A stretch of DNA of 39,017 nt from a phage. The position numbers were made by a program, and so were the translations under genes. Within the stretch, counting starts at the first letter, position 1; every line of letters starts with the position of its first letter. The stretch lies in the sequence record PZ168289.1, one strand, 5' to 3'. Shown piece by piece: positions 4,656-36,815 of the stretch. The notes under the pieces are model-generated. The model ran no database searches and was not told the DNA's origin. It saw nothing but the letters and a program-made list of their open reading frames with translations.

Positions 4656-4673
4656 GGTTAATCCTCCGCGTTT

Positions 4674-4722
4674 AGTCTAATCATAAAGGCCACTCTCGAT
4701 GTGAATGACCTTGAGTCTAGAC
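4674..4722 (-). other. conserved RNA hairpin element, copy i (putative RNase III site upstream of DNAP)
   Basis: Minus RNA UAGACUCAAGGUCAUUC..GAGUGGCCUUUAUGAUUAG; 10-11 bp stem with G-U pairs; shares flanks with copies ii and iii. Confidence 0.5.
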
Positions 4723-6672: not shown

Positions 6673-6694
6673 ATCCCTAAGGTGATAGTTTAGG
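6672..6694 (-). promoter_or_regulatory. variant promoter-like motif upstream of primase-helicase
   Basis: CCTAAGGTGATAGTTTAG; minus -4/-3 are CT instead of TA; may be weak or non-functional. Confidence 0.35.
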
Positions 6695-9469: not shown

Positions 9470-9492
9470 CTGTCCTACAGTGATAGTTTAGG
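9470..9492 (-). promoter_or_regulatory. phage RNAP promoter (SSB upstream)
   Basis: CCTACAGTGATAGTTTAG, one mismatch at -3; contains the gp2 stop codon. Confidence 0.6.
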
Positions 9493-10341: not shown

Positions 10342-10364
10342 TTGTCCTATAGTGATAGCTTAGG
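10342..10364 (-). promoter_or_regulatory. phage RNAP promoter (gene 1.5/1.6 region)
   Basis: CCTATAGTGATAGCTTAG, one mismatch at -12; directly after the TE-like terminator. Confidence 0.65.
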
Positions 10365-12028: not shown

Positions 12029-12058
12029 GTTGTAGCTCCAGTTGTTTAGGTTATAGGG

Positions 12059-12103
12059 TTAATCATGAAGGCCACGACTTTAAGTCATGACCTTGAGTCT
12101 AAT
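12059..12103 (-). other. conserved RNA hairpin element, copy ii (putative RNase III site, R1.1-like position)
   Basis: Minus RNA AGGUCAUGAC-UUAAA-GUCGUGGCCU; compensatory changes relative to copies i and iii. Confidence 0.5.
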
Positions 12104-12122
12104 CCTATAGTGATAGTTTAGG
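12100..12122 (-). promoter_or_regulatory. phage RNAP promoter (gene 1.1 upstream)
   Basis: Perfect CCTATAGTGATAGTTTAG; transcript begins with the conserved hairpin element at 12059-12103. Confidence 0.75.
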
Positions 12123-15163: not shown

Positions 15164-15186
15164 GAGTCCTATAGTGATAGTTAAGT
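15164..15186 (-). promoter_or_regulatory. phage RNAP promoter directly upstream of the RNAP gene
   Basis: CCTATAGTGATAGTTAAG at 15168-15185, about 70 nt upstream of RNAP ATG 15095. Confidence 0.65.
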
Positions 15187-18432: not shown

Positions 18433-18455
18433 CTTCCCTATAGTGATAGTTAAGT
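18433..18455 (-). promoter_or_regulatory. phage RNAP promoter (phi-OR-like, after terminase, before gp19.5)
   Basis: CCTATAGTGATAGTTAAG at 18437-18454. Confidence 0.7.
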
Positions 18456-18549: not shown

Positions 18550-20316
18550 CTAGTGGAACGTAACGTATGACCCTAGTCCTAGCTCGTCGTCCGTATCGTG
18601 AGTTACCCTGACCCCATTGTCCCAGAACTCGGTGTGGATGGACTCGAAGCCTTTCCGTGGGTTCTCCATCTGTTCCTCCAGCCACTCCTCAGTGACTTCG
18701 CGTTCGCCTTTGTTGGCATCCTTAGCCATAGACTCAACGAAGAACTGTACACCGATAGCCAGAGCATCAAGTCGGTCATCGTGTGCCAAGGCTCCACGCT
18801 CACGAGAGATACGGGTCATCTGGTAGAAGAGAGAGTAGATAGGGTTACGAACGCCATCCTTATCAGAGGCTGTCTGGTAGTCTTGGACGATAGCAGCAGC
18901 GTTAACGATAAGTCGGTGAGACCCCATGATAGGCTCCAGAACGTCACAGATGCGGAGTTCTTTCTGACCCTTACTCTTCACTTCAGTTACAGCCGCAGGA
19001 TGGATACGGGCCGCTACAGGCTTGAATAGCTCAAGGTACATACCATCACCGAAGTTACCCTCAATGACGTATTCGTTGACCTTCCACTTACGACCAATCT
19101 TAGCCAAGGCTTCCAACGTAGAGTCTTCATAACCGCCACGCATACCACCCACTTCCATAGCGAAGATGTAGCCGTTGAGCTGATACAGTACCGCATAACC
19201 AGTTTCATCCTTACCACGACCACTAGGGTCAATGACCAGAATCTTCTGGGTGTACGAACTGAAGGCAGAACCTACAGTCTGATACGTGTGGTACGAGTCA
19301 CCCATGAGTCCAACGTTAGGAACGTCCTCACGCTTGTTCTGAGGGTTCGGCAACCATTGGTAGACCATTGGACTGGACGCTGGGTCCAAGTCGGCTACGA
19401 TAAGGTCACGGAGCTTCAGAGGGTACTTCTCTGCATCACTCAGGTTAGGGTTAAGCATGAACTGTAGCGCGAAGCCAGCTTTACCGTAAGATAGCTCACG
19501 TTCCTTAAGGTCAGTATCATCGAAGCGTACTTCATCAGTCGGACGCCAGTAGAAGGACTCAGGGTCCTCTTCCAGCTCTGCCTGAAGCATAGGAGCCAGA
19601 CGGTCGCCGTAAGACTGCCAGTCCTTCCTGTCGCGTGGATACCGAGCTGGCCAGATAGTAGTGGTATACCCACGACCTTCCAACTCACGATACAGGGTCA
19701 TCTCGTTCTGAGGAGTGCCCAGATAGATGATTGCACCTCCCGGCTTCAGGATAGCGTCGAACTCTTTCACAAGCTCTGACAGTCGGTCTCGCGCAGCCTG
19801 AGTCGCAGAGTTGTTAGGAACCTCCACGTCATCGGCAATCAGGATGTCAGCACGACTACCAGTCAACTGACCAGTGATGCCAACGGACTTAACCGAAGGT
19901 GAGTGGTCTGGCTTGGCTGGCCCAACGTCGAAGCTGATAACTGCATCTCGCTGTCCCTGCTTAGGTTTGAGTTCCTGAAGCTGAGGCATGAGGTCGATGA
20001 TTCGCTTGATGAATATGGAGTTAGCATCGGCTCGTTCCTTTGAGGCCGACACAATCATGAACTTCAAGTCTGGGTTGTTCCATAGTTTCCAGACCACGAA
20101 ACCACAGGTCAGAAACGACTTGCCAATACCACGGAACGCCTGAAGGATGAAGCGGCGATTATCCCCAGCAGCAAGCTTCTTACACATATCTATCTGGCAG
20201 CGGGTTGGAACCGGAAGGCTAAGAGCTTTCCAGAGAACGAAGATGAAGAACACGAAGTCGTCCCTCATCCTTTGGGTCATTTCTGCCTGTCTTTCCACAG
20301 GTGTTTTCTTAGACAT
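18550..20316 (-). CDS. terminase large subunit (T7 gp19-like)
   Basis: Collinear with T7 gp19 ([81 protein letters not shown]); GGAGGG RBS. Confidence 0.97.
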
Positions 20317-20372: not shown

Positions 20373-20810
20373 TCACTTAACACCTTGGAGCCTCCTTATT
20401 GTGTCCTGAAGCGCCTTCTCCTTAAGGTCTGCCTCCTGAGTTATTCGGATAAGACTTTTAGAAGTTTCTGGGTGTAGTTCGACTCTACCATTAGGGAAGC
20501 ATCGACTGACATCTGACTCGGTGAGACCTGAGGTGTTGACCTTGACGCGCAGCCGCTTATTGTCAGACTTAAGGTCAGCAATAATCCTATCAGTGCTGCC
20601 TTCCAACGAGGACATTTCGTCCTGAAACCGTTTGGACACTTTGTCGACTTCAGCTTGTACAGCAAGCCTTGTATCTTCCGATGCCTTAAGATTCGAGGTG
20701 TATTCTGCATTGACCTTAGCCTCCCACTTATTGTTAGCGGTGTGGTAGCCACCAGCAAACATCACTGCTGCAAGTAACCACGGAGCCGCTCTCTTTAAAA
20801 ATTCGAGCAT
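20373..20810 (-). CDS. Rz-like inner-membrane spanin (T7 gp18.5-like)
   Basis: MLEFLKR..PWLLA N-terminus and EGSTDRII.DL.SDNKRLRV block match T7 gp18.5; GGGAGGG RBS. Confidence 0.92.
   Translation of the reverse strand: MLEFLKRAAPWLLAAVMFAGGYHTANNKWEAKVNAEYTSNLKASEDTRLAVQAEVDKVSKRFQDEMSSLEGSTDRIIADLKSDNKRLRVKVNTSGLTESDVSRCFPNGRVELHPETSKSLIRITQEADLKEKALQDTIRRLQGVK
20441..20710 (-). CDS. Rz1-like outer-membrane lipoprotein spanin embedded in Rz in another frame (T7 gp18.7-like)
   Basis: PRWKAALIGLLLTLSLTISGCAS...MSVDASLMVE matches T7 gp18.7 including the lipobox Cys; start chosen at internal Met (track ORF 20441..20758). Confidence 0.75.
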   Translation of the reverse strand: MQNTPRILRHRKIQGLLYKLKSTKCPNGFRTKCPRWKAALIGLLLTLSLTISGCASRSTPQVSPSQMSVDASLMVESNYTQKLLKVLSE

Positions 20811-20865
20811 AGTTGCCCTCCCGGTTTATCAGATTTTCACGTGGAGTCGCCTCCACTAGTTAGTG

Positions 20866-20910
20866 TTAACCATAAAGGCCACTACATATAGTAATGACCT
20901 TGAGTCTAAC
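20866..20910 (-). other. conserved RNA hairpin element, copy iii (putative RNase III site, R18.5-like position)
   Basis: Minus RNA AAGGUCAUUAC-UAUAU-GUAGUGGCCUU between small terminase and Rz; a second small hairpin GTGGAG-TCGC-CTCCAC at 20841-20856. Confidence 0.5.
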
Positions 20911-20912
20911 AC

Positions 20913-21176
20913 TTATTGAACACCATACCCTGTGTCATTATCCTCAGTCGCTGAAAGCACCTTATCGTACTCTGCGTTCAGGGCCTCCATATCAGCCAGC
21001 GTCTTCTCGTCCACAGACACCTTGCTTAACACAAAGTTGTGACGAGCAAGCAGCTTCTCAATGGCGTTGTAGAGCTGAGGTGAACGCTTAGAGTCGTCAC
21101 GTAAGTCTTGCAGCATAAGTCGAGCACGTTCAGTATCCAGCATTAAGAGGAACTTCTCTAAGTCCATCTGCGTCAT
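20913..21176 (-). CDS. terminase small subunit (T7 gp18 position)
   Basis: 87-aa ORF between holin and Rz, size and position of T7 gp18; stop/start overlap with holin. Confidence 0.7.
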   Translation of the reverse strand: MTQMDLEKFLLMLDTERARLMLQDLRDDSKRSPQLYNAIEKLLARHNFVLSKVSVDEKTLADMEALNAEYDKVLSATEDNDTGYGVQ

Positions 21177-21367
21177 GTTTTACCACCTCCTTTAATCGTT
21201 TTGTAGACTAGCACACCAATCTGGACAACGGTGTACGCGATCGCTGCAACGTAGAACCATTCGTTCAGTGTAAGTCCGAAGAAGAACCGACTGGCACCAT
21301 CAGCCGCAGCGGTCCCGACGATAGGAGAGGCTTTAAGGACCTCATTCTTGAAGTCTAACTCAATCAT
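21173..21367 (-). CDS. class II holin (T7 gp17.5-like)
   Basis: LDF.NE..KA.PIVGT..AD...R.FFGL.LNEWFYVAAIAYTVVQIG almost identical to T7 gp17.5. Confidence 0.93.
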   Translation of the reverse strand: MIELDFKNEVLKASPIVGTAAADGASRFFFGLTLNEWFYVAAIAYTVVQIGVLVYKTIKGGGKT

Positions 21368-21409
21368 AAAACCTCCAGTTTAAAGCGGGTCGTCCGTGAC
21401 CCAAAGTTG

Positions 21410-23410
21410 TTACCAGTAGTACCAGTCTCCTTTTCTACTTCTGACTAAAATAGAGCAATCGGCAACTGGTACTGTAGATACCCCACCAATCTTTATCTCA
21501 TACAGTTTACTAGGCAATCTTCGCTTAGTCAGAGATGCTTTAAAATCTGTACCAGTTACAGTGATATATTCCGTTCCATCCTCACTAGTTATCTGTAGTG
21601 CCAGGCCACTAGGACTTGCTGGCAACTTAACATAAAGCTGCTGTTCTGCTGTACTACCAGCGAAATGACCAATAACGGTAGTTGTCCACTCACTCAAAGT
21701 CAGCCCTGAACGCACAAAATCTACATTAAGGGGTTCCTTAATAAGTGCAGCAGGTGCATTGTAATTATGCCCGTTAAGTACATAGTAGTTGCTGCTACCA
21801 ACCTCTACTGTGTCTGCTGTGCAATAAGAGTGGAAGGTTTTTGCGTTATCAAAGCGATATAGGCTTCTGATTAGCACACGCTCTTGATTGCTTCTGGTTA
21901 AAATGCCACAACCTGCGGAAAGGTGGAGTGTGGAGATGGTAAGCGTATGACTTTCACTGTTGGCCTTGGATGACAGCAATGACACCTTGGGTTCACCCTC
22001 TTGAGTAAAGTCTTTACTATTACCCTCACAGTACATGATCCCAATGTCCCACGCAGCAGGGTCCATTGTTACCACCCCAGCACCAGCCGTATTCTCAGAG
22101 CAAATCACACCAACACTAGTAGATAAACCACGACCTAAGATAATACCAGCACCTATCGTATATTTACTCGCATCATCTGTGATTGGGTCATAACCTAGTC
22201 CCGTAGACTTATCTGTACCCCATGCACTAATGTGAGGGAAGTGTGTAGCATTTACATAGGTATCCCCTTGCTCACCTTCCGTTGAATAACCTAATGCCAT
22301 GCCCCTTGCACAGTTGTTTGCATGGAGAGTACCCATTTGAAAATACCAGCAAGCAAACATTACAATGCCATATCTATTAGCATTATATGCATAGATGCTA
22401 CCCATCTCGGATTCTGCACACATTAGTCGTGCGTAAAAACCATACGATGCAATATCTGCACAGTCTATGTTCAGACTACCAATCAAACGTAGCCCTCGTA
22501 CCTGGTTCTCAGTATTAGCTACATCAACGGTTGGGGTTCCAATAGGAAATTTACTAACACGAACAACAGATTTTAATGCGGGCCATGTAGGACCAATTGC
22601 TTTAATTGTTGCCCCATTTAGATTCCCACGTAGGTAAGAGGGAATAACAACCTCATCTGTTACGTGGTAGGTAGACTTGCCATCAAGGTTTAATGTGCCT
22701 GTAGCTATGGCCAATTTTATAGCAGGTAGACAGTCAAAGCTGGGGTCGTTCGGGATTGCCCCAAAGTTCTCAGGTGAGTGTTCATCAAGCCCATTCAGCT
22801 TACCTACGTTAGTCCAATTGGAATCAGGGGTTGAACCTGTAGGCACTGTTTTTGGGAGAGCACCATCCCAGCGGTAATAATAACCATCCTCTTCCCATAG
22901 CAGGACCTCGTTCCATAGTGTAACGTTGAAGCCTTTCTCGAAGGAGCTACGGGTAATATAGCCAATTAGACCAGCTTCCCTGATATTCGAAACTATTCGT
23001 CGTGCTTCGTCCTCGCTATCCTTAGCGTTGCCAGCAGAGATACCAGCAGCATCGGCATATTCCTTCGCTAAGTCAACAGTTTGGTCTCGCCCTTCTTCTG
23101 CAATATGGATAGCCTGAAGCTCTGAATTGGTCAGGTCACTAGCTGTCAACACTGAGCCATTCCTGAAGTCTACCACTAAGTCAGTTCCAGTCTGACGGTG
23201 AATACGAACGATATCGAAACCTGATTGGTCAACCAACATCTCAATCATCGTTGGATTAAGGAATCGGTAATCTCGACCAACTTCCAGTACACGGTTCAGG
23301 GCAGGGTTAGAGCTATTCACCAGCGTAACAACAACAAACGTTCTGGCTAGGTAGTCGAACTCAATCCTGTACCGAGTGTTTCCTGAAGGGAATTGTGTAA
23401 TCGTGGACAT
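21410..23410 (-). CDS. tail fiber / tailspike: T7 gp17-like N-terminal adaptor with divergent C-terminal receptor-binding domain
   Basis: N-terminal ~150 aa align with T7 gp17 ([37 protein letters not shown]); C-terminus differs and carries a GAIPNDP..D...I..AI motif typical of beta-helix depolymerase tailspikes. Confidence 0.88.
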
Positions 23411-23455
23411 TATGCCTCCTTTGTGATTTAAATGGAGACCTATGGTAGCGCCTCC

Positions 23456-23478
23456 GTTTCCTATAGTGATAGTTTAGT
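23456..23478 (-). promoter_or_regulatory. phage RNAP promoter (tail fiber upstream)
   Basis: Perfect core at 23460-23477; contains the gp16 TAA stop. Confidence 0.75.
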
Positions 23479-26400
23479 TCTTGATGTGGATGCCTTGCTC
23501 CTCAAACGTTCCAAGCAACAGCTTCTGGGTAATTGGGTCGTTCGGAACCAGCTCACGGAACGTATTATACATCCCGGTCATGTAGTCACGCTCGTTGACG
23601 CGAGTATCAGCCTTGAGGTAGCCAGCCAAGTTGTAAGCCGAAGCGCCAACGTTAGCAGCATATCCGAAAGCTGGAACCTGCTCCAAGAAGTTACCAACAA
23701 CATTCATAACAGGGTCACTTGTAGCCGCACCATACGCGATGGCACGTTCAGGCTGCTCTGTAGGCGAACGAGGTAGGATAGACGAACGGAGCATCTTAGT
23801 GTCCTCATACCCAGCGATGCCACCCAGAATGTTAGCTACCCCAAGTGGGCCACCCAGATGTGAACTACGGGACAGAGCCGCATATCCAATCATCGTCGGG
23901 TCCAGAGCTTGCTTGAGGTACTCACGGTCTCTGCCATCCTGCATAGCGTAAGCCTTGACGTGAGCCTGAGCCATGTAGTAGATACCAGCCAGACCCATAG
24001 ACATCACGGTAGATAGAGCAGCATCCATCGCTCGGTTGTTCTTCGTGGCGTTATAGAAGGTTCGCATGGTTCGCCCGTTGATGGACTTGATGACGAAGTT
24101 CTTAAACTGAAGGACAGTCTTAGCTAGAGGGCCATAAGCCTTGGCATCCATGTTTGACAGCTTGTGGGGCCGGAGTAACGTTTCGTCAGCGATGGTGTCA
24201 CCCATACGCCACAGGTCCATAGCCCTTGGGTCCTGACTGAACGCCTTCTTATCCTTGATGGTATACTTCCCGTCTGGACCACGAGTCACTGACTCACGGA
24301 TTAATGACTTAATGCCCTTCCACTGCTCGTCAGATATACCAGCGGTCTTCAGCCAGCGGTCATCGAACTTACGCTTACTACCAGTCAGGCTATGCTCCAC
24401 GATGTCAGACAGGAAGCCTTGACGTCCAGCATCTAACAGGTAGTTGGTCGTACCGTTGAGAACTTTAGTGAACGGAGAGCGTACTGCGAGTTCACCAGTG
24501 TAATACTTGGCAGTCCCCAGAGCTGTAGCTGTACCACGACCGAGGTCACTGTAAGACCGCAGACGGTCAATGACATCCTGTTTAGATGGGCGTATTGAGT
24601 CATCAAGTTCCTTACCAAAGATAACATTGTGCAGGTCCTTAATCTCTGAGGCCCCAACCTTCTTGTTACGGAAGGCTAGGTCACGGAAAATTGGGACTCC
24701 ATGCAGCATTGCACGAACGTTACCACGGGCCAGCATACCACCAATCTCCGTTAAGTTCTGAACACCCATATAGGCATTCTTAGCGAAGAACGATAGGTCT
24801 GTCATTGTGCGCATCACGGTAGCGAAGGCTGCATCGTCAGCACCATCACGTCGAGCACGACCAGTTAGAATCTTCAGGGTGTCACGCAAGGTAGATACTT
24901 CACCTTTCAACTTTCCGTCATCACCAGCCTTGTTCATCATGGTCTCAACCAAGTCCTTCATTTCTTTCGTTGTCTTGCCTGCACCAGCCATAATGGCAAT
25001 GTCACCATTAACTCGACGGTTGTATGCCGGGACAATCTTGTCCATGTCCCACTCCCGCAGGTTGTTGACACTGAAGGTTTGACCATTAGGAAGAACTATT
25101 GACATATCGCTGTCGAACAGGTTACGAGCCTCAAGGAAGCTGTTGTTCTCCAGACCAACCAGACCATTGATGTTCTCTTCCATTACGGATGAACGCTCGA
25201 ACTGCTCGGTGTGAGAGATACCATAAGCCTTATCGTTGGCGTACTTATCGACCGCAGCCGCAAGTCCTTCTGGAGTCAACGTAGGGTCAGCCTCTAAGAG
25301 TGCCTCGTCCACACGTTTCTTGACCTCAGGTCGAGACGCATAGCTGGTCAACCATGACTTCTTGATGGCCTCCTGCAACGCCTCTGGACTCCCAAGCTCC
25401 TTGATGTACAGCTCCTTCATCTGTTTGCTATACACATGAGGGACGTAGGTTCCCTTGAAGCGGCTACCCGGAAAGATAGACTGAGCGTCTGGCCGACCAA
25501 ACATAGCTGGGTTCTCCATCATCTCACGCTTGGCGTCAAACTGGTTCTTCAGTAGGTCATAGACTTTCAGTTCTCCCGGAGTCAGTTCAGCCTTCAGGTT
25601 TCCGCTACCATCTTCGATAGCCATAGACACACGCTGGTAGATGTCCTGACGGAATGCACCAGAGTCTCGCCAGAATGCTGTCTGGAAGTACGGGTCCTTT
25701 AGTGCCTCAGTAACCGCATCGTCGATGTCGTTGTATAACCGATGGTCCACAGCACGAAGTCTCTCGAATACGTCTGACGCAGTGGTCCCGATTTTACCTG
25801 AGGACCCTGATTGCATACCAGTCGGTGAACGTACTAAGTCAGCAGCTACTCCACGAATCTCAGGGTTCTCAGACCGAAGCAGCTTCAGACCAATCTCGGT
25901 AAGTCCACCAAGGTTCACACCAGCAGCGGCACGTTCAGGCTCAATCACTTCGTCAAAGACTTGACGTGTCTTAGGGTTCAGAGGGTTCTCACCAATCAGG
26001 ATTGAACCATCCTCCAGTCGTACACTACCCGGCTCATTCGGAACGTCAGCGAATTTAACGCCTTGATGACTAAAGGTCTGCTCACCTTCCTGAATAGGGA
26101 GACGAGACAGGTCCTGACCATCAACGTTACGAGCTGTCTCACGAGCTTCCAGACGTGTAGCTGGGCCAGCGAACTCATTAGTGTTGCGACCTAAGGCTCT
26201 GCCTAATCCATCAGCGATAGCAGTCATGCCCCCACCAAAGAGAGCACCGCCAAGGATAGCTTCAGCCACATGAGCATCACCACCAGCCACTGAGGTACGA
26301 GCCATCTCGGACACACCAGCCAGTGCTCCAGATTGAGCAGCCACGGTGAACATCTTGTTGACCAGCTTACCACCTTTACCAACCTGTCCAGCGATAGGAA

Positions 26401-27361
26401 CGTATGTCAGAGGGTCTACACCAGCACCAATCACACCAGCAGCTAACTGAGCACCAGTCCCAGCCTTGGCCTTCTCTTGGTCCAACTTCTGGTTCTCAAG
26501 CGCCAAGTTGATAAGCTCGGTCAGGTTCTGAGGTGAGCCACCAGTAATGACTCCGTAATACTGGGGCAGAACCCCAGCGTTACGAATCTGGTCCAGCTCC
26601 TCACGAGCCCACTTATGGTTGTTCCAGCGGGTCGGGTTGAACACATCGCCAATGACATCAAGTGAGTCCTCAGTCTGACCAGCGCGGATAGCCACGCCGA
26701 CCATAGAGTTCTTCACTTCGGCTTCTGTAGCCGCACCAAAACCGAACCACGTAGAGCGACCCTCTCGTTCCTGCATGGTCTCGCCAGTAGACTTATAGAA
26801 CATCTCACCGAACGATTCGTTGGGAGCTTCAGGTGCTTGACCCTCAATGTTAAGACCAGCAGCGGTCGGAAGGTTCTCACCCAGAGCTACTTTAGGTTTA
26901 GCCTTGAGTCCTTCCGTGAGTGCGTCAAATACGTTAGCGCTTACTGGTGGAGTCTTTGGGCTAATGCCATTGAGTGCTCGTGCGACTCCCTTCTGATAGA
27001 CTTCAGGGTCGTACCGGGAGCCTGTCTCATGGAAGCTGATAGCTTGAGCCAGAGAAGACAGGGTGTCAGGGTCCGATAGGTCGAGGCTCTGGGTAGCTGG
27101 AATACCAGTTGCAGCCACCACTGAGTCAATATAAGACTTAGTATCGTTCTCGTTAGGAGGTGCCCATCGGTTGATAATCTTCTCGATGGAGTCATAACCT
27201 TGGCGACCGTAGGACAGCAGGTTTTTACCTAAAGCTCGGACGCCAGACTCTGGGCTATCAAATATTACAAACTCCCCATCATCACCAATAGCTCCTTCCC
27301 ATTGGTCCTTAGACTTACGTATATTTCCAGGGTTCGAATTTCTTATGCCACGTGTTGCCAT
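23474..27361 (-). CDS. internal virion protein D with N-terminal lytic transglycosylase domain (T7 gp16-like)
   Basis: 1295 aa; long collinear similarity to T7 gp16 (PTRWN.H.W, GAGVDPL.YVP, MRLEARETARN, VRSPTGMQSG, GTYVPHVY, AYGISH..QF, NNSFLEARNLFDSD); AAGGAG RBS. Confidence 0.96.
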   Translation of the reverse strand: MATRGIRNSNPGNIRKSKDQWEGAIGDDGEFVIFDSPESGVRALGKNLLSYGRQGYDSIEKIINRWAPPNENDTKSYIDSVVAATGIPATQSLDLSDPDTLSSLAQAISFHETGSRYDPEVYQKGVARALNGISPKTPPVSANVFDALTEGLKAKPKVALGENLPTAAGLNIEGQAPEAPNESFGEMFYKSTGETMQEREGRSTWFGFGAATEAEVKNSMVGVAIRAGQTEDSLDVIGDVFNPTRWNNHKWAREELDQIRNAGVLPQYYGVITGGSPQNLTELINLALENQKLDQEKAKAGTGAQLAAGVIGAGVDPLTYVPIAGQVGKGGKLVNKMFTVAAQSGALAGVSEMARTSVAGGDAHVAEAILGGALFGGGMTAIADGLGRALGRNTNEFAGPATRLEARETARNVDGQDLSRLPIQEGEQTFSHQGVKFADVPNEPGSVRLEDGSILIGENPLNPKTRQVFDEVIEPERAAAGVNLGGLTEIGLKLLRSENPEIRGVAADLVRSPTGMQSGSSGKIGTTASDVFERLRAVDHRLYNDIDDAVTEALKDPYFQTAFWRDSGAFRQDIYQRVSMAIEDGSGNLKAELTPGELKVYDLLKNQFDAKREMMENPAMFGRPDAQSIFPGSRFKGTYVPHVYSKQMKELYIKELGSPEALQEAIKKSWLTSYASRPEVKKRVDEALLEADPTLTPEGLAAAVDKYANDKAYGISHTEQFERSSVMEENINGLVGLENNSFLEARNLFDSDMSIVLPNGQTFSVNNLREWDMDKIVPAYNRRVNGDIAIMAGAGKTTKEMKDLVETMMNKAGDDGKLKGEVSTLRDTLKILTGRARRDGADDAAFATVMRTMTDLSFFAKNAYMGVQNLTEIGGMLARGNVRAMLHGVPIFRDLAFRNKKVGASEIKDLHNVIFGKELDDSIRPSKQDVIDRLRSYSDLGRGTATALGTAKYYTGELAVRSPFTKVLNGTTNYLLDAGRQGFLSDIVEHSLTGSKRKFDDRWLKTAGISDEQWKGIKSLIRESVTRGPDGKYTIKDKKAFSQDPRAMDLWRMGDTIADETLLRPHKLSNMDAKAYGPLAKTVLQFKNFVIKSINGRTMRTFYNATKNNRAMDAALSTVMSMGLAGIYYMAQAHVKAYAMQDGRDREYLKQALDPTMIGYAALSRSSHLGGPLGVANILGGIAGYEDTKMLRSSILPRSPTEQPERAIAYGAATSDPVMNVVGNFLEQVPAFGYAANVGASAYNLAGYLKADTRVNERDYMTGMYNTFRELVPNDPITQKLLLGTFEEQGIHIKN

Positions 27362-27792
27362 GTCTTTCTCCTTAAGATATTTCTAATAGAAACCGTACTC
27401 ACTCCATAGGAGCTAGCTAGGAATGAAACCTTTAGGTCGCTAGACCGTATGTTCTTCACATCAGTCTCTGTCAATTTGGACACTCCTATTGAGCTTCCAG
27501 ACGCTTGACGACCTCTTTCCACCTTGTCTCTAATGTTGTCAGCCTGAGTTCCGGCCTCAAGATGGTCAGGGTTTATGCAGGACGGATTGTCGCACTTATG
27601 GCGTACAACATACCCTTCAGGTATAGGACCACTGGCAAGCTCATAAGCTAGTCGATGTGCTCTATACTTAACTCTGTTAATCATTATCTGACCGTAACCG
27701 TCAGAATCTACGGTCCCAGTGAATCGGATACAGCCAGAGCTTTCAGCTACTGACAATTCTGCCAGTCTCTCACTGGCTGTCCCGTTCTTCAT
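27343..27792 (-). CDS. HNH homing endonuclease (copy 2 of 3)
   Basis: HNH motif (C..FTG, AHRLAYEL, HKCDNPSCINPDHL) plus HTH-like tail; start set to ATG 27792 with AAGGAG RBS (track 27810); 3' end overlaps the first codons of gp16. Confidence 0.85.
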   Translation of the reverse strand: MKNGTASERLAELSVAESSGCIRFTGTVDSDGYGQIMINRVKYRAHRLAYELASGPIPEGYVVRHKCDNPSCINPDHLEAGTQADNIRDKVERGRQASGSSIGVSKLTETDVKNIRSSDLKVSFLASSYGVSTVSIRNILRRKTWQHVA

Positions 27793-27796
27793 TATG

Positions 27797-30079
27797 TTAC
27801 TCCTTACCAATTAGTACGTTTGCGATACCCTCCAGTGAGACGTCATTATACATCCCACCGCGCTTCTCGATGTCGGCCTCTCGGTCAGCTCGACGTTTAT
27901 CACCAGCAGCTTTAGTCCCGACGATACGCGCTCGCTTGTTAGCGTCACGTTCTGCCTGAGCGTATGCGGCATCCTGTGCCTTCTGCTGTTGTTCGCGGTA
28001 GAGTTTACCTACAAGTTCTTTATCGTAGCGAATACGAATAGTCCCTGTAGCGTCTTGGAGGAAGATAGAGCCGTTCTGTTCAACAACGGACAACTGAGAG
28101 TTCACTACCCAAGGGTTGGCCTTAATGAGCTGCTTACGGGCGGTGTCGATAATGTCTCGACCTACCTGCCACGACTCAGGGTTATCCCCGACCATGAGCT
28201 GGTGCTTGGACACCATGCCGATGGACTTACCGTCAGAGCCTTCAGACTGGAACGTTACGGTATTTTCATTCAGCCATCGTTGAGTCTGCTGAGTTGCAGC
28301 GTCAGCGTTACCTGTACGATAGTACCATGAGTCCCAGACCTTACGAGCACTTGAGTCCAGAGACGTAGGAAGACGCGAAAGGTCCTTATTCCGAGAGTCG
28401 TTCTTCAACTCCTGCCACGCCTTGTCTGACTCCATGCGCATCTCACGGCTTTGACTTGCAGCTTGCTTATCAGCTTCAATCATCGTCTGAGGGTCCAGAC
28501 CCATCTTGTCCATCTGGTCGAACGTAGAGAACAACTGAGCTTGGTCAGGATACAGAGCAGCGAAACTTGAAGGGTCCTGAGTGTAGGCACGACGCAGTGA
28601 CTCGAAGCGTTTCATCTTGTCTGGGTCGTACTGTCCACGGATGACCGCAGCTTGCCACTCACCAGCAGCGTCCTGAGTCAGCGTCTGGAAGGCATTACGG
28701 AACGGACCGTTGTTAGTGTCAGCTCTTAACAATGCCACCTTCTGAGCGTCTTTAGCGGCCTCAGGGATGTCCATCTGGTCAATCTGCTGTAGCTTGGCAG
28801 ACGCATAGTTGTTCATGTCAGAACGCTTGAACTCGCCTGTAGCATCTGAGACCGGAAGGTCCTCATAGTTGGTGGACACGTTGTCACCAGCCAGCCGCCG
28901 CTGATATACTTGGTCTATGACCAGTTGCTTGTTCTGGGTCTGGATTAACTTAGTGTTCTCCTTAGCCTGTTCAGCGGACTTACGCTTGACCGCTTCCAGT
29001 AAGCTGGCTTCGGCATTAATAAGCATCTGACGCTGAGGCGTTAGTTCTTCACCGGGTTGAAGCAGGTTGTTCTGCTCCTTGAGTTTCTGAATCTGGGCAA
29101 GACCAATGGTTGGGTCGTCCTGAAGAATCGCAGACTGAACGCCTAACGCCAAGTCTTCCTGATACTTAGCAACCAGTTTATACTCAGTACCTTGGGCCTC
29201 AACCATAGCAGCATTGAAGACGTCAGGTCCTACAATCTCTTCGACGGTAGCGTCAACACCGTTAAGTGTGATACGCTCGCCACGGACTTGCTGTAGGAAG
29301 TTTGAGCCTCCTGACTTCTGGATTGCGTCACGGACCGTCTGGGTGATGACCTCTCGTGCTCTCTGGTCCGAAGGTATAGCAGCAGTCGTCAGTCCATCAC
29401 GAAGGTAGGCCATGAAGGTCTTTCCAGACTCAGGCGAACGCATCAGGTCCCCATCGTTAAGGAACGAGTTCATCTCAATACGAGTGTTCAACATTGCTGT
29501 CTCTTCAGACTGCTTGCTGAAATACTTATTGAATGACCCGTATATAGCGATGTTTCTGTCCGTGATGTTATCGTTGAATCCACGCTGGAAGAACTCGTCG
29601 GTAGGGTTAATACCCGCCTCTTCAGCATAGGACTTAGCGGCATCCTGAAGTCGCTGGTGGCGATACTCTTCCATGTCCTGACGTGTTCGGAACTCACCGT
29701 TCTGAATCTTAACGTTAATCTCGTCATCCACCGCAAAGGCAGCGTTACGACCAGTCTTGACTCGAAGTGCTTCCATAGCGTAAGGGTCATCCTGATACAG
29801 CAATGTGCCGTTCTGGATAGCCTCACGTCTCTGCTGAGGTGTCAACTTACGGATAATCTCGTTAGACCGCTCGTCAGCTCTGGTCTTCTCCTCGTCCTTG
29901 AACTGCTTGTACAATCCAGTCCCAGACTCAACGAAGTTGGTTAACGCACGAGCCAGACCGGAGTCACCAGTCGGAGCCTGAACGTTTGCTGCTTGATAGT
30001 TGACGGCGATAGTTTTACCCGGCGCTCTGCCACGACCCATAGTCCGATTAGCAAGAGCTGATTCAATATTACTAGCCAT
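27797..30079 (-). CDS. internal virion protein C (T7 gp15-like)
   Basis: Collinear with T7 gp15 (DERSNEIIRKLTPQQRREA.QNGTLLYQDDPYAMEALRVKTGRNAA, EEYRH.RLQ, IRYDKEL). Confidence 0.93.
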   Translation of the reverse strand: MASNIESALANRTMGRGRAPGKTIAVNYQAANVQAPTGDSGLARALTNFVESGTGLYKQFKDEEKTRADERSNEIIRKLTPQQRREAIQNGTLLYQDDPYAMEALRVKTGRNAAFAVDDEINVKIQNGEFRTRQDMEEYRHQRLQDAAKSYAEEAGINPTDEFFQRGFNDNITDRNIAIYGSFNKYFSKQSEETAMLNTRIEMNSFLNDGDLMRSPESGKTFMAYLRDGLTTAAIPSDQRAREVITQTVRDAIQKSGGSNFLQQVRGERITLNGVDATVEEIVGPDVFNAAMVEAQGTEYKLVAKYQEDLALGVQSAILQDDPTIGLAQIQKLKEQNNLLQPGEELTPQRQMLINAEASLLEAVKRKSAEQAKENTKLIQTQNKQLVIDQVYQRRLAGDNVSTNYEDLPVSDATGEFKRSDMNNYASAKLQQIDQMDIPEAAKDAQKVALLRADTNNGPFRNAFQTLTQDAAGEWQAAVIRGQYDPDKMKRFESLRRAYTQDPSSFAALYPDQAQLFSTFDQMDKMGLDPQTMIEADKQAASQSREMRMESDKAWQELKNDSRNKDLSRLPTSLDSSARKVWDSWYYRTGNADAATQQTQRWLNENTVTFQSEGSDGKSIGMVSKHQLMVGDNPESWQVGRDIIDTARKQLIKANPWVVNSQLSVVEQNGSIFLQDATGTIRIRYDKELVGKLYREQQQKAQDAAYAQAERDANKRARIVGTKAAGDKRRADREADIEKRGGMYNDVSLEGIANVLIGKE

Positions 30080-31162: not shown

Positions 31163-31185
31163 AGTCCCTATAGTGATAGTTAAGG
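31163..31185 (-). promoter_or_regulatory. phage RNAP promoter (gp13 upstream) inside an inverted repeat
   Basis: CCTATAGTGATAGTTAAG at 31167-31184, flanked by GGGCCTATAG (31155-31164) and CTATAGGCCC (31191-31200). Confidence 0.7.
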
Positions 31186-35805: not shown

Positions 35806-35828
35806 TCTCCCTATAGTGATAGTTTAGT
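35806..35828 (-). promoter_or_regulatory. phage RNAP promoter (major capsid upstream)
   Basis: Perfect core at 35810-35827; ~105-nt leader to capsid ATG 35703. Confidence 0.8.
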
Positions 35829-36792: not shown

Positions 36793-36815
36793 AGTTCCTA
36801 TAGTGATAGTTTAGG
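36793..36815 (-). promoter_or_regulatory. phage RNAP promoter (scaffold upstream)
   Basis: Perfect core at 36797-36814; contains the portal TAA stop; leader has hairpin CCGGG-AGTCTCA-CCCGG (36751-36767). Confidence 0.75.

Follow-up and report, generated by a model that had tools for sequence, protein, structure and literature searches.

Within the 39,017-nucleotide stretch of phage DNA analysed here (PZ168289.1, hereafter the window), positions 21410 to 23410 carry one ATG-initiated open reading frame of 666 codons on the minus strand, in agreement with the original prediction of a tailspike gene at this place. The frame lies between gp16 and the holin and packaging genes of a T7-group genome. 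Because the order of genes around it, 16-17-17.5-18-18.5-19, is that of the T7 group and Escherichia phage TM1 is annotated likewise, it was concluded that the frame is gene 17 (Table 1). Over its first 25 kb the window shares 92-94% identity, in reverse orientation, with K1F and other Kayfunavirus genomes. A search elsewhere in the window for a second spike-like frame of at least 150 aa found none, and on that ground a second spike gene, or a split adaptor as in K1-5, SP6 and CLB_P1, was rejected.

Table 1. Features of gene 17 and its surroundings (window coordinates)
Feature	Position	Strand	Basis or remark
Gene 17, tailspike/receptor-binding protein, 666 aa + stop	21410..23410	-	ORF list, flanking genes, TM1 homology
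T7 gp17-type N-terminal tail-attachment domain, aa 1-115	23066..23410	-	PF03906 and PDB matches
Helical linker, aa 116-149	22964..23065	-	AF2 helices
PF18668 'Tail_spike_N' small beta domain, aa 150-198	22817..22963	-	last conserved part of the adaptor
50-nt conserved island, end of PF18668 coding region	22827..22876	-	blastn against ~72-kb contig
N-terminal cap helices and right-handed parallel beta-helix, aa 199-540	21791..22816	-	putative polysaccharide-binding/cleaving body
C-terminal all-beta domain, aa 562-666	21413..21727	-	AF2
Shine-Dalgarno GGAGG	23415..23419	-	4 nt upstream of gene 17 ATG; read from sequence
Putative phage-RNA-polymerase promoter copy upstream of gene 17	23456..23478	-	core 18-mer 23460-23477
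Internal virion protein gp16, transglycosylase domain	23474-27361		PHROG assignment
Holin gene 17.5	21173-21367		PHROG assignment
Small terminase	20913-21176		PHROG assignment
Rz spanin	20373-20810		PHROG assignment
Large terminase	18550-20316		PHROG assignment
CCTATAGTGATAGTTWAG copies 1-6	989-1006, 6676-6693, 9474-9491, 10346-10363, 12104-12121, 15168-15185		
CCTATAGTGATAGTTWAG copies 7-11	18437-18454, 23460-23477, 31167-31184, 35810-35827, 36797-36814		

The 18-mer CCTATAGTGATAGTTWAG, whose gene-strand form is the reverse complement CTWAACTATCACTATAGG, occurs 11 times in the window when up to two mismatches are allowed, always in a single orientation, versus 0 copies expected by chance. One copy lies about 50 nt upstream of the gene 17 ATG, its core overlapping the gp16 stop codon. 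The T7 promoter consensus, which we take to contain CACTATAGG, is the basis for calling the 18-mer a promoter; by analogy, the CTWAACTATCACTATAGG copies would be T7-like phage-RNA-polymerase promoters, and that of gene 17 the equivalent of T7 phi17. Together the 11 copies would constitute a promoter map of the genome. On the 3' side of gene 17, an intrinsic terminator, possibly 'motif three' of PMC10408124, was considered in the form of a GGGTC...GACCC hairpin at 21378-21394 and was discarded because shuffled sequences reach comparable stability (z -0.57); a terminator pattern scan was without a match there.

The N-terminal 198 residues constitute an adaptor. A PF03906 profile match covers residues 10-114 (E 1.3e-15, 57.8 bits vs a gathering cutoff of 25.2), and the solved N-termini of T7 gp17 (7boz, 8dsp, 8e4g) align to residues 6-115 at E values from 9e-16 to 4e-17, the former being that of 7boz, aligned through its residues 12-121. 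The first ~150 residues had been described as T7-like; similarity to gp17 is indeed confined to the N terminus, but the T7-like part ends at about residue 115. Beyond it, AlphaFold2 (AF2) places helices at 95-107, 109-121 and 129-146, though for the monomer their pLDDT is low, at 34-39, and residues 116-149 are probably a trimeric coiled-coil neck. PF18668, the Tail_spike_N domain known from CBA120 TSP1 and G7C gp66, then matches residues 154-197 (E 1.2e-10, 41.8 bits vs a cutoff of 25), directly upstream of the receptor-binding module, and residues 150-198, modelled at pLDDT 84-90, also match the N-terminal domains of CBA120 TSP1/3/4 in the PDB. Thus, of the non-T7 remainder that the original prediction began at about residue 150, the greater part is a predicted beta-helix as proposed, but residues 150-198 are the conserved PF18668 domain and the variable module starts only at 199.

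Gene 17 has DNA matches in 162 phage records, of which 159 match only through residues 1 to ~196. Conservation with these Kayfunavirus-type records ends at ~22821-22824, that is, at residues 196-197. The records include phages of Salmonella Typhi and Enterobacter as well as K1-specific ones; one of them carries a lyase annotation and another an endosialidase annotation. The same division is seen in 9vvr_A, an 843-aa Kayfunavirus-type tail spike with ~93% identity across residues 1-198 and no relation beyond. The adaptor-only matches of 159 of the 162 records, together with the domain matches, show the adaptor to be a socket shared across the genus, consisting of two domains with a helical neck between them. 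Docking of trimers on the tail by the N-terminal domain is established for T7 gp17, and by homology the corresponding domain here would hold six trimers at the gp11/gp12 junction of the tail.

The module itself is sharply delimited. In a blastn comparison with a ~72-kb phage contig, homology runs from 22816, the first base of codon W199, to 21410, the last base of the stop, at 85.4% nucleotide identity over 1407 nt, and the sole homology to that contig outside the receptor-binding module is the 50-nt island, at 76%. In position the island matches the 44-nt 'motif one' that has been proposed as a cross-genus hotspot of recombination exchanging receptor-binding domains (PMC10408124), and it is likely a recombination joint. 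The GC minimum of the genome at the 1.4-kb scale also falls on the module (0.440 vs 0.499), only 0.3% of equal-sized genome segments being as low, and its GC3 is 0.357 vs 0.52-0.58 in the adjacent genes. The abrupt W199-to-stop homology, the island, the low GC and the mosaic distribution described below mark residues 199-666, at the level of sequence, as a horizontally acquired cassette.

Searches of Pfam, PHROGs and PDB sequences match only the N-terminal 198 residues and leave the helix body without a match; nor did a PDB search with the family profile find a solved relative of it. The fold was therefore approached through structure prediction. A full-length AF2 monomer model, built on a 29-sequence alignment, has pLDDT of ~90 at residues 150-540 and 570-655, while the neck and the N-terminal domain are poorly modelled. 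A module-only model (mean pLDDT 88.9, pTM 0.76) shows short cap helices, then evenly spaced beta-strands over residues ~239-540, then a low-confidence linker at ~540-560. The C-terminal domain (residues ~562-658) has eight predicted strands at pLDDT ~73-92, mostly 86-92 and lower in the last residues, and probably serves in trimer stabilisation and/or carbohydrate binding.

Comparison of the model with known folds returned dozens of polygalacturonases, lyases and tailspikes, over 270-360 aligned residues at 7-16% identity. The top Foldseek matches are K2-2 TSP, CBA120 TSP2/3/4, KP32gp38, Depo32 and similar proteins (E ~1e-7, probability 1.0), with global TM-scores of just 0.3-0.42. Taking these high-ranking matches together with the low TM-scores and the lack of a profile match, the predicted beta-helix fold class is secure, without a close structural homologue. 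No fibre fold was predicted, and the pectate-lyase-like beta-helix features of the original prediction are borne out by the confident model and its fold matches, as fold only. A strict pectate lyase of the PL families received neither a Pfam pectate-lyase match nor a PDB sequence match to the helix body; PF12708 (Pectate_lyase_3) does not match the tailspike at E<=1, and matches 2 of 29 relatives at E 3.9e-4.

We are fairly confident that gene 17 encodes a mosaic Kayfunavirus tailspike, in which the adaptor carries an acquired beta-helix module that in all likelihood binds and cleaves a surface polysaccharide. The groove of the beta-helix would bind a repeating polysaccharide of the host surface (O-antigen or capsule), the conserved carboxylates, of which D316, E333, E380, E462 and D521 are candidates, would cleave it, and with the polymer cut the virion could advance to the outer membrane. 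In the sequence alignment of the family, which extends down to 29% identity, four of these positions (D316, E333, E380, D521) never vary, and E462 is present in 13 of 14 sequences. Characterised P22-like and Ackermannviridae spikes are depolymerases (PMC8432352). Catalysis by the module is most likely, given the conservation of the carboxylates, the preponderance of enzymes among the top structural neighbours and the occurrence of the same cassette in depolymerase-bearing phage types. The interpretation as a polysaccharide-degrading spike is supported in this way. The analysis directly shows the frame and where it lies, the domains that compose it, the limits of the module and its mosaic distribution; the beta-helix fold is a prediction, and assembly into trimers, cleavage, the type of reaction and the substrate are inferred.

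The same observations bear on the most durable alternative, that the module is a binding-only spike for a surface glycan or protein, like the beta-helix adhesins. This is improbable, although it deserves a hearing: five carboxylates that stay invariant or nearly so down to 29% identity are typical of active sites, the highest-ranked fold matches are mostly enzymes, and the P22-like and Ackermannviridae spikes use the same module and have depolymerases as their characterised members. A polysaccharide-modifying activity, such as deacetylation or epimerisation in place of depolymerisation, is a slim prospect. An AlgE-type epimerase was considered from a conserved GYDP stretch and rejected; the His of the AlgE-type motif is absent, being I, Y, F or S in the family alignment, the AF2 model puts the stretch in an inserted loop and not in a turn of the helix, and sequence searches gave no hit to an epimerase family. 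As to deacetylation, the tailspike deacetylases known to us use SGNH folds, not beta-helices. Finally, an elongated T7-type fibre whose small tip domain at the distal end would bind rough LPS or a protein of the outer membrane, suggested by the gp17-like N-terminal domain and the label 'tail fiber(s) protein' on GenBank relatives, is effectively refuted by an AF2 model that is a compact beta-helix without pyramid or tip domains and by fold matches that are tailspikes, there being no match to T7 gp17 past residue ~115.

For the preferred reading, of a depolymerising spike, the nature of the substrate bears on the host. The original prediction had the phage infecting an encapsulated enterobacterium. 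Receptor-binding proteins specific for O-antigen are documented in Kayfunavirus (PMC10408124), and in view of these and of the P22-like prophage relatives O-antigen is at least as likely a substrate as capsule, so that an encapsulated host is not established.

The distribution of the module is patchy. In the GenBank phage set it is shared only with TM1, EFA-1 and EFA-2, at 93.6-97% amino acid identity. The TM1 'tail fibers protein' (USL94541.1, OM908436) and gp17 of EFA-1 and EFA-2 are the same gene, of 666 aa and in the same genomic position, differing from gene 17 here by a few percent of sequence: nucleotide identity is 95.5% over the gene, as in the CDS of TM1, and amino acid identity 96-97% over the receptor-binding module. 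No paper on these genes was found, and they are uncharacterised in function or structure. The entries MT350292 and MT350293 ('Enterococcus phage EFA-1/EFA-2', flagged UNVERIFIED_ORG) are ~93-95% identical to the window, as is PV615262 ('Acinetobacter phage vB_Aba_01KA'), also a Kayfunavirus genome; the Enterococcus and Acinetobacter labels look unreliable and unfit for inferring the host range of the tailspike.

In a collection of 5.8 billion proteins, ~35 near-identical copies of the module lie on ~39-kb contigs, and IMG/VR added just two more contigs of Kayfunavirus size; the exact gene 17 protein is not on record in the databases. The module also occurs, at 93% identity, in longer gp17 variants of 768 and 866 aa, the former on ~39-kb contigs and with both PF03906 and PF18668, which implies that some T7-group relatives have an adaptor or neck extended by 100-200 aa. 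At 89-91% identity it is found in a 692-aa protein on ~72-kb contigs beside a 942-aa PF18668 protein, a two-spike layout resembling the one described for G7C-type (Gamaleyavirus) phages. Copies at 52-55% identity are in Proteus and Providencia genomes, and those at 39-42% follow a P22 head-binding domain (PF09008) or an Ackermannviridae TSP N-terminus (vB_EcoM_UP17), or belong to 815-aa E. coli/Salmonella proteins. In the P22-like prophage spikes (PF09008 plus beta-helix, 650 aa, E. coli/Salmonella) the module is 39-41% identical over 99% of its length, the difference being that these have another adaptor domain and belong to temperate phages.

A HMMER scan run exhaustively over 1.84 billion representatives clustered at 50% gave 35 matches to the module at E<=1e-3, and the family is therefore small. 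Module DNA had no match in 5,426 complete E. coli genomes, searched for prophage copies that could indicate the host serogroup, and a GTDB scan of one genome per species with the family alignment yielded 40 pattern matches, 0 of them confirmed. No characterised homologue was found, and the literature on TM1, UP17, EFA-1, TSP7_1 and PDB 9VVR/9LNA held nothing relevant. We tentatively suggest that the module represents a small uncharacterised tailspike family, with an undescribed glycan specificity and possibly active-site arrangement, recently imported from a low-GC, Proteus/Providencia-like pool. Import from such a pool is proposed because of the GC3 of 0.357 and because the next-closest relatives, at 52-55%, are Proteus and Providencia prophage proteins.

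A conserved anchor with an exchangeable beta-helix depolymerase is the textbook layout of K1F-like and many other podophages (PMC10408124, PMC6872550). Escherichia phage K1F, type member of Kayfunavirus, belongs to the same genus as the present phage (~94% nucleotide identity of the genomes), and K1-specific phage F and its relatives share the ~196-aa adaptor at ~95% nucleotide identity, DNA similarity to the K1-specific phages stopping at residue ~196. K1F gp17 follows the same logic of conserved anchor and exchangeable polysaccharide-degrading module, but its module is a beta-propeller sialidase with a self-cleaving C-terminal chaperone, whereas a beta-helix is predicted here. A K1F-type endosialidase (GH58 plus Peptidase_S74) was rejected, since the tailspike has no Pfam match to a sialidase domain or to the Peptidase_S74 chaperone. 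T7 gp17 shares the PF03906 tail-attachment domain and the gene order 16-17-17.5; it continues as a coiled-coil shaft, pyramid and tip domain with no enzyme, in contrast to the predicted beta-helix spike that forms the distal part here. CBA120 (Kuttervirus) TSP1-4 and G7C-type gp66 belong to branched complexes of several spikes, unlike the one spike gene with T7-type attachment in the window, and the solved TSPs are just ~10% identical to the beta-helix here in sequence.

The mosaic tailspike is thus an ordinary find: its architecture is well documented and near-identical genes are already deposited, so that one more mosaic tailspike in Kayfunavirus and related phages brings no conceptual gain. 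Its only less explored side is the small module family, whose members are uncharacterised in substrate, activity and structure. The module sets which strains the phage infects, and phage typing, therapy design and swaps of receptor-binding domains would profit from knowing its substrate; for such swaps the exact limits of the module (W199 to stop) and the conserved 50-nt joint provide a ready-made cassette.

Two further elements of the window lie outside gene 17. The first is a family of 49-nt repeats on the minus strand (4672-4720, 12054-12102 and 20861-20909). Read on the gene strand, the copies form stable stem-loops interrupted by a bubble, at dG -19 to -23 kcal/mol and z -3.2 to -5.1, the upper-stem sequence varying among copies while pairing is kept. 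One repeat falls in the gap separating gene 18 from gene 18.5 (Rz), the place at which we take T7 to have its RNase III site R18.5; on the strength of this shared position the repeats probably serve for processing by RNase III. A search of the whole window for Rfam families was without a match. The second element is an HNH endonuclease frame of 155 aa with a TTG start (27343-27810, minus strand; PHROG 59, E 4e-35), wedged between gp15 and gp16 with an overlap of a few codons with each. The same frame is present in TM1, annotated there as a homing endonuclease, and it is a probable mobile homing element within the operon of internal virion proteins.
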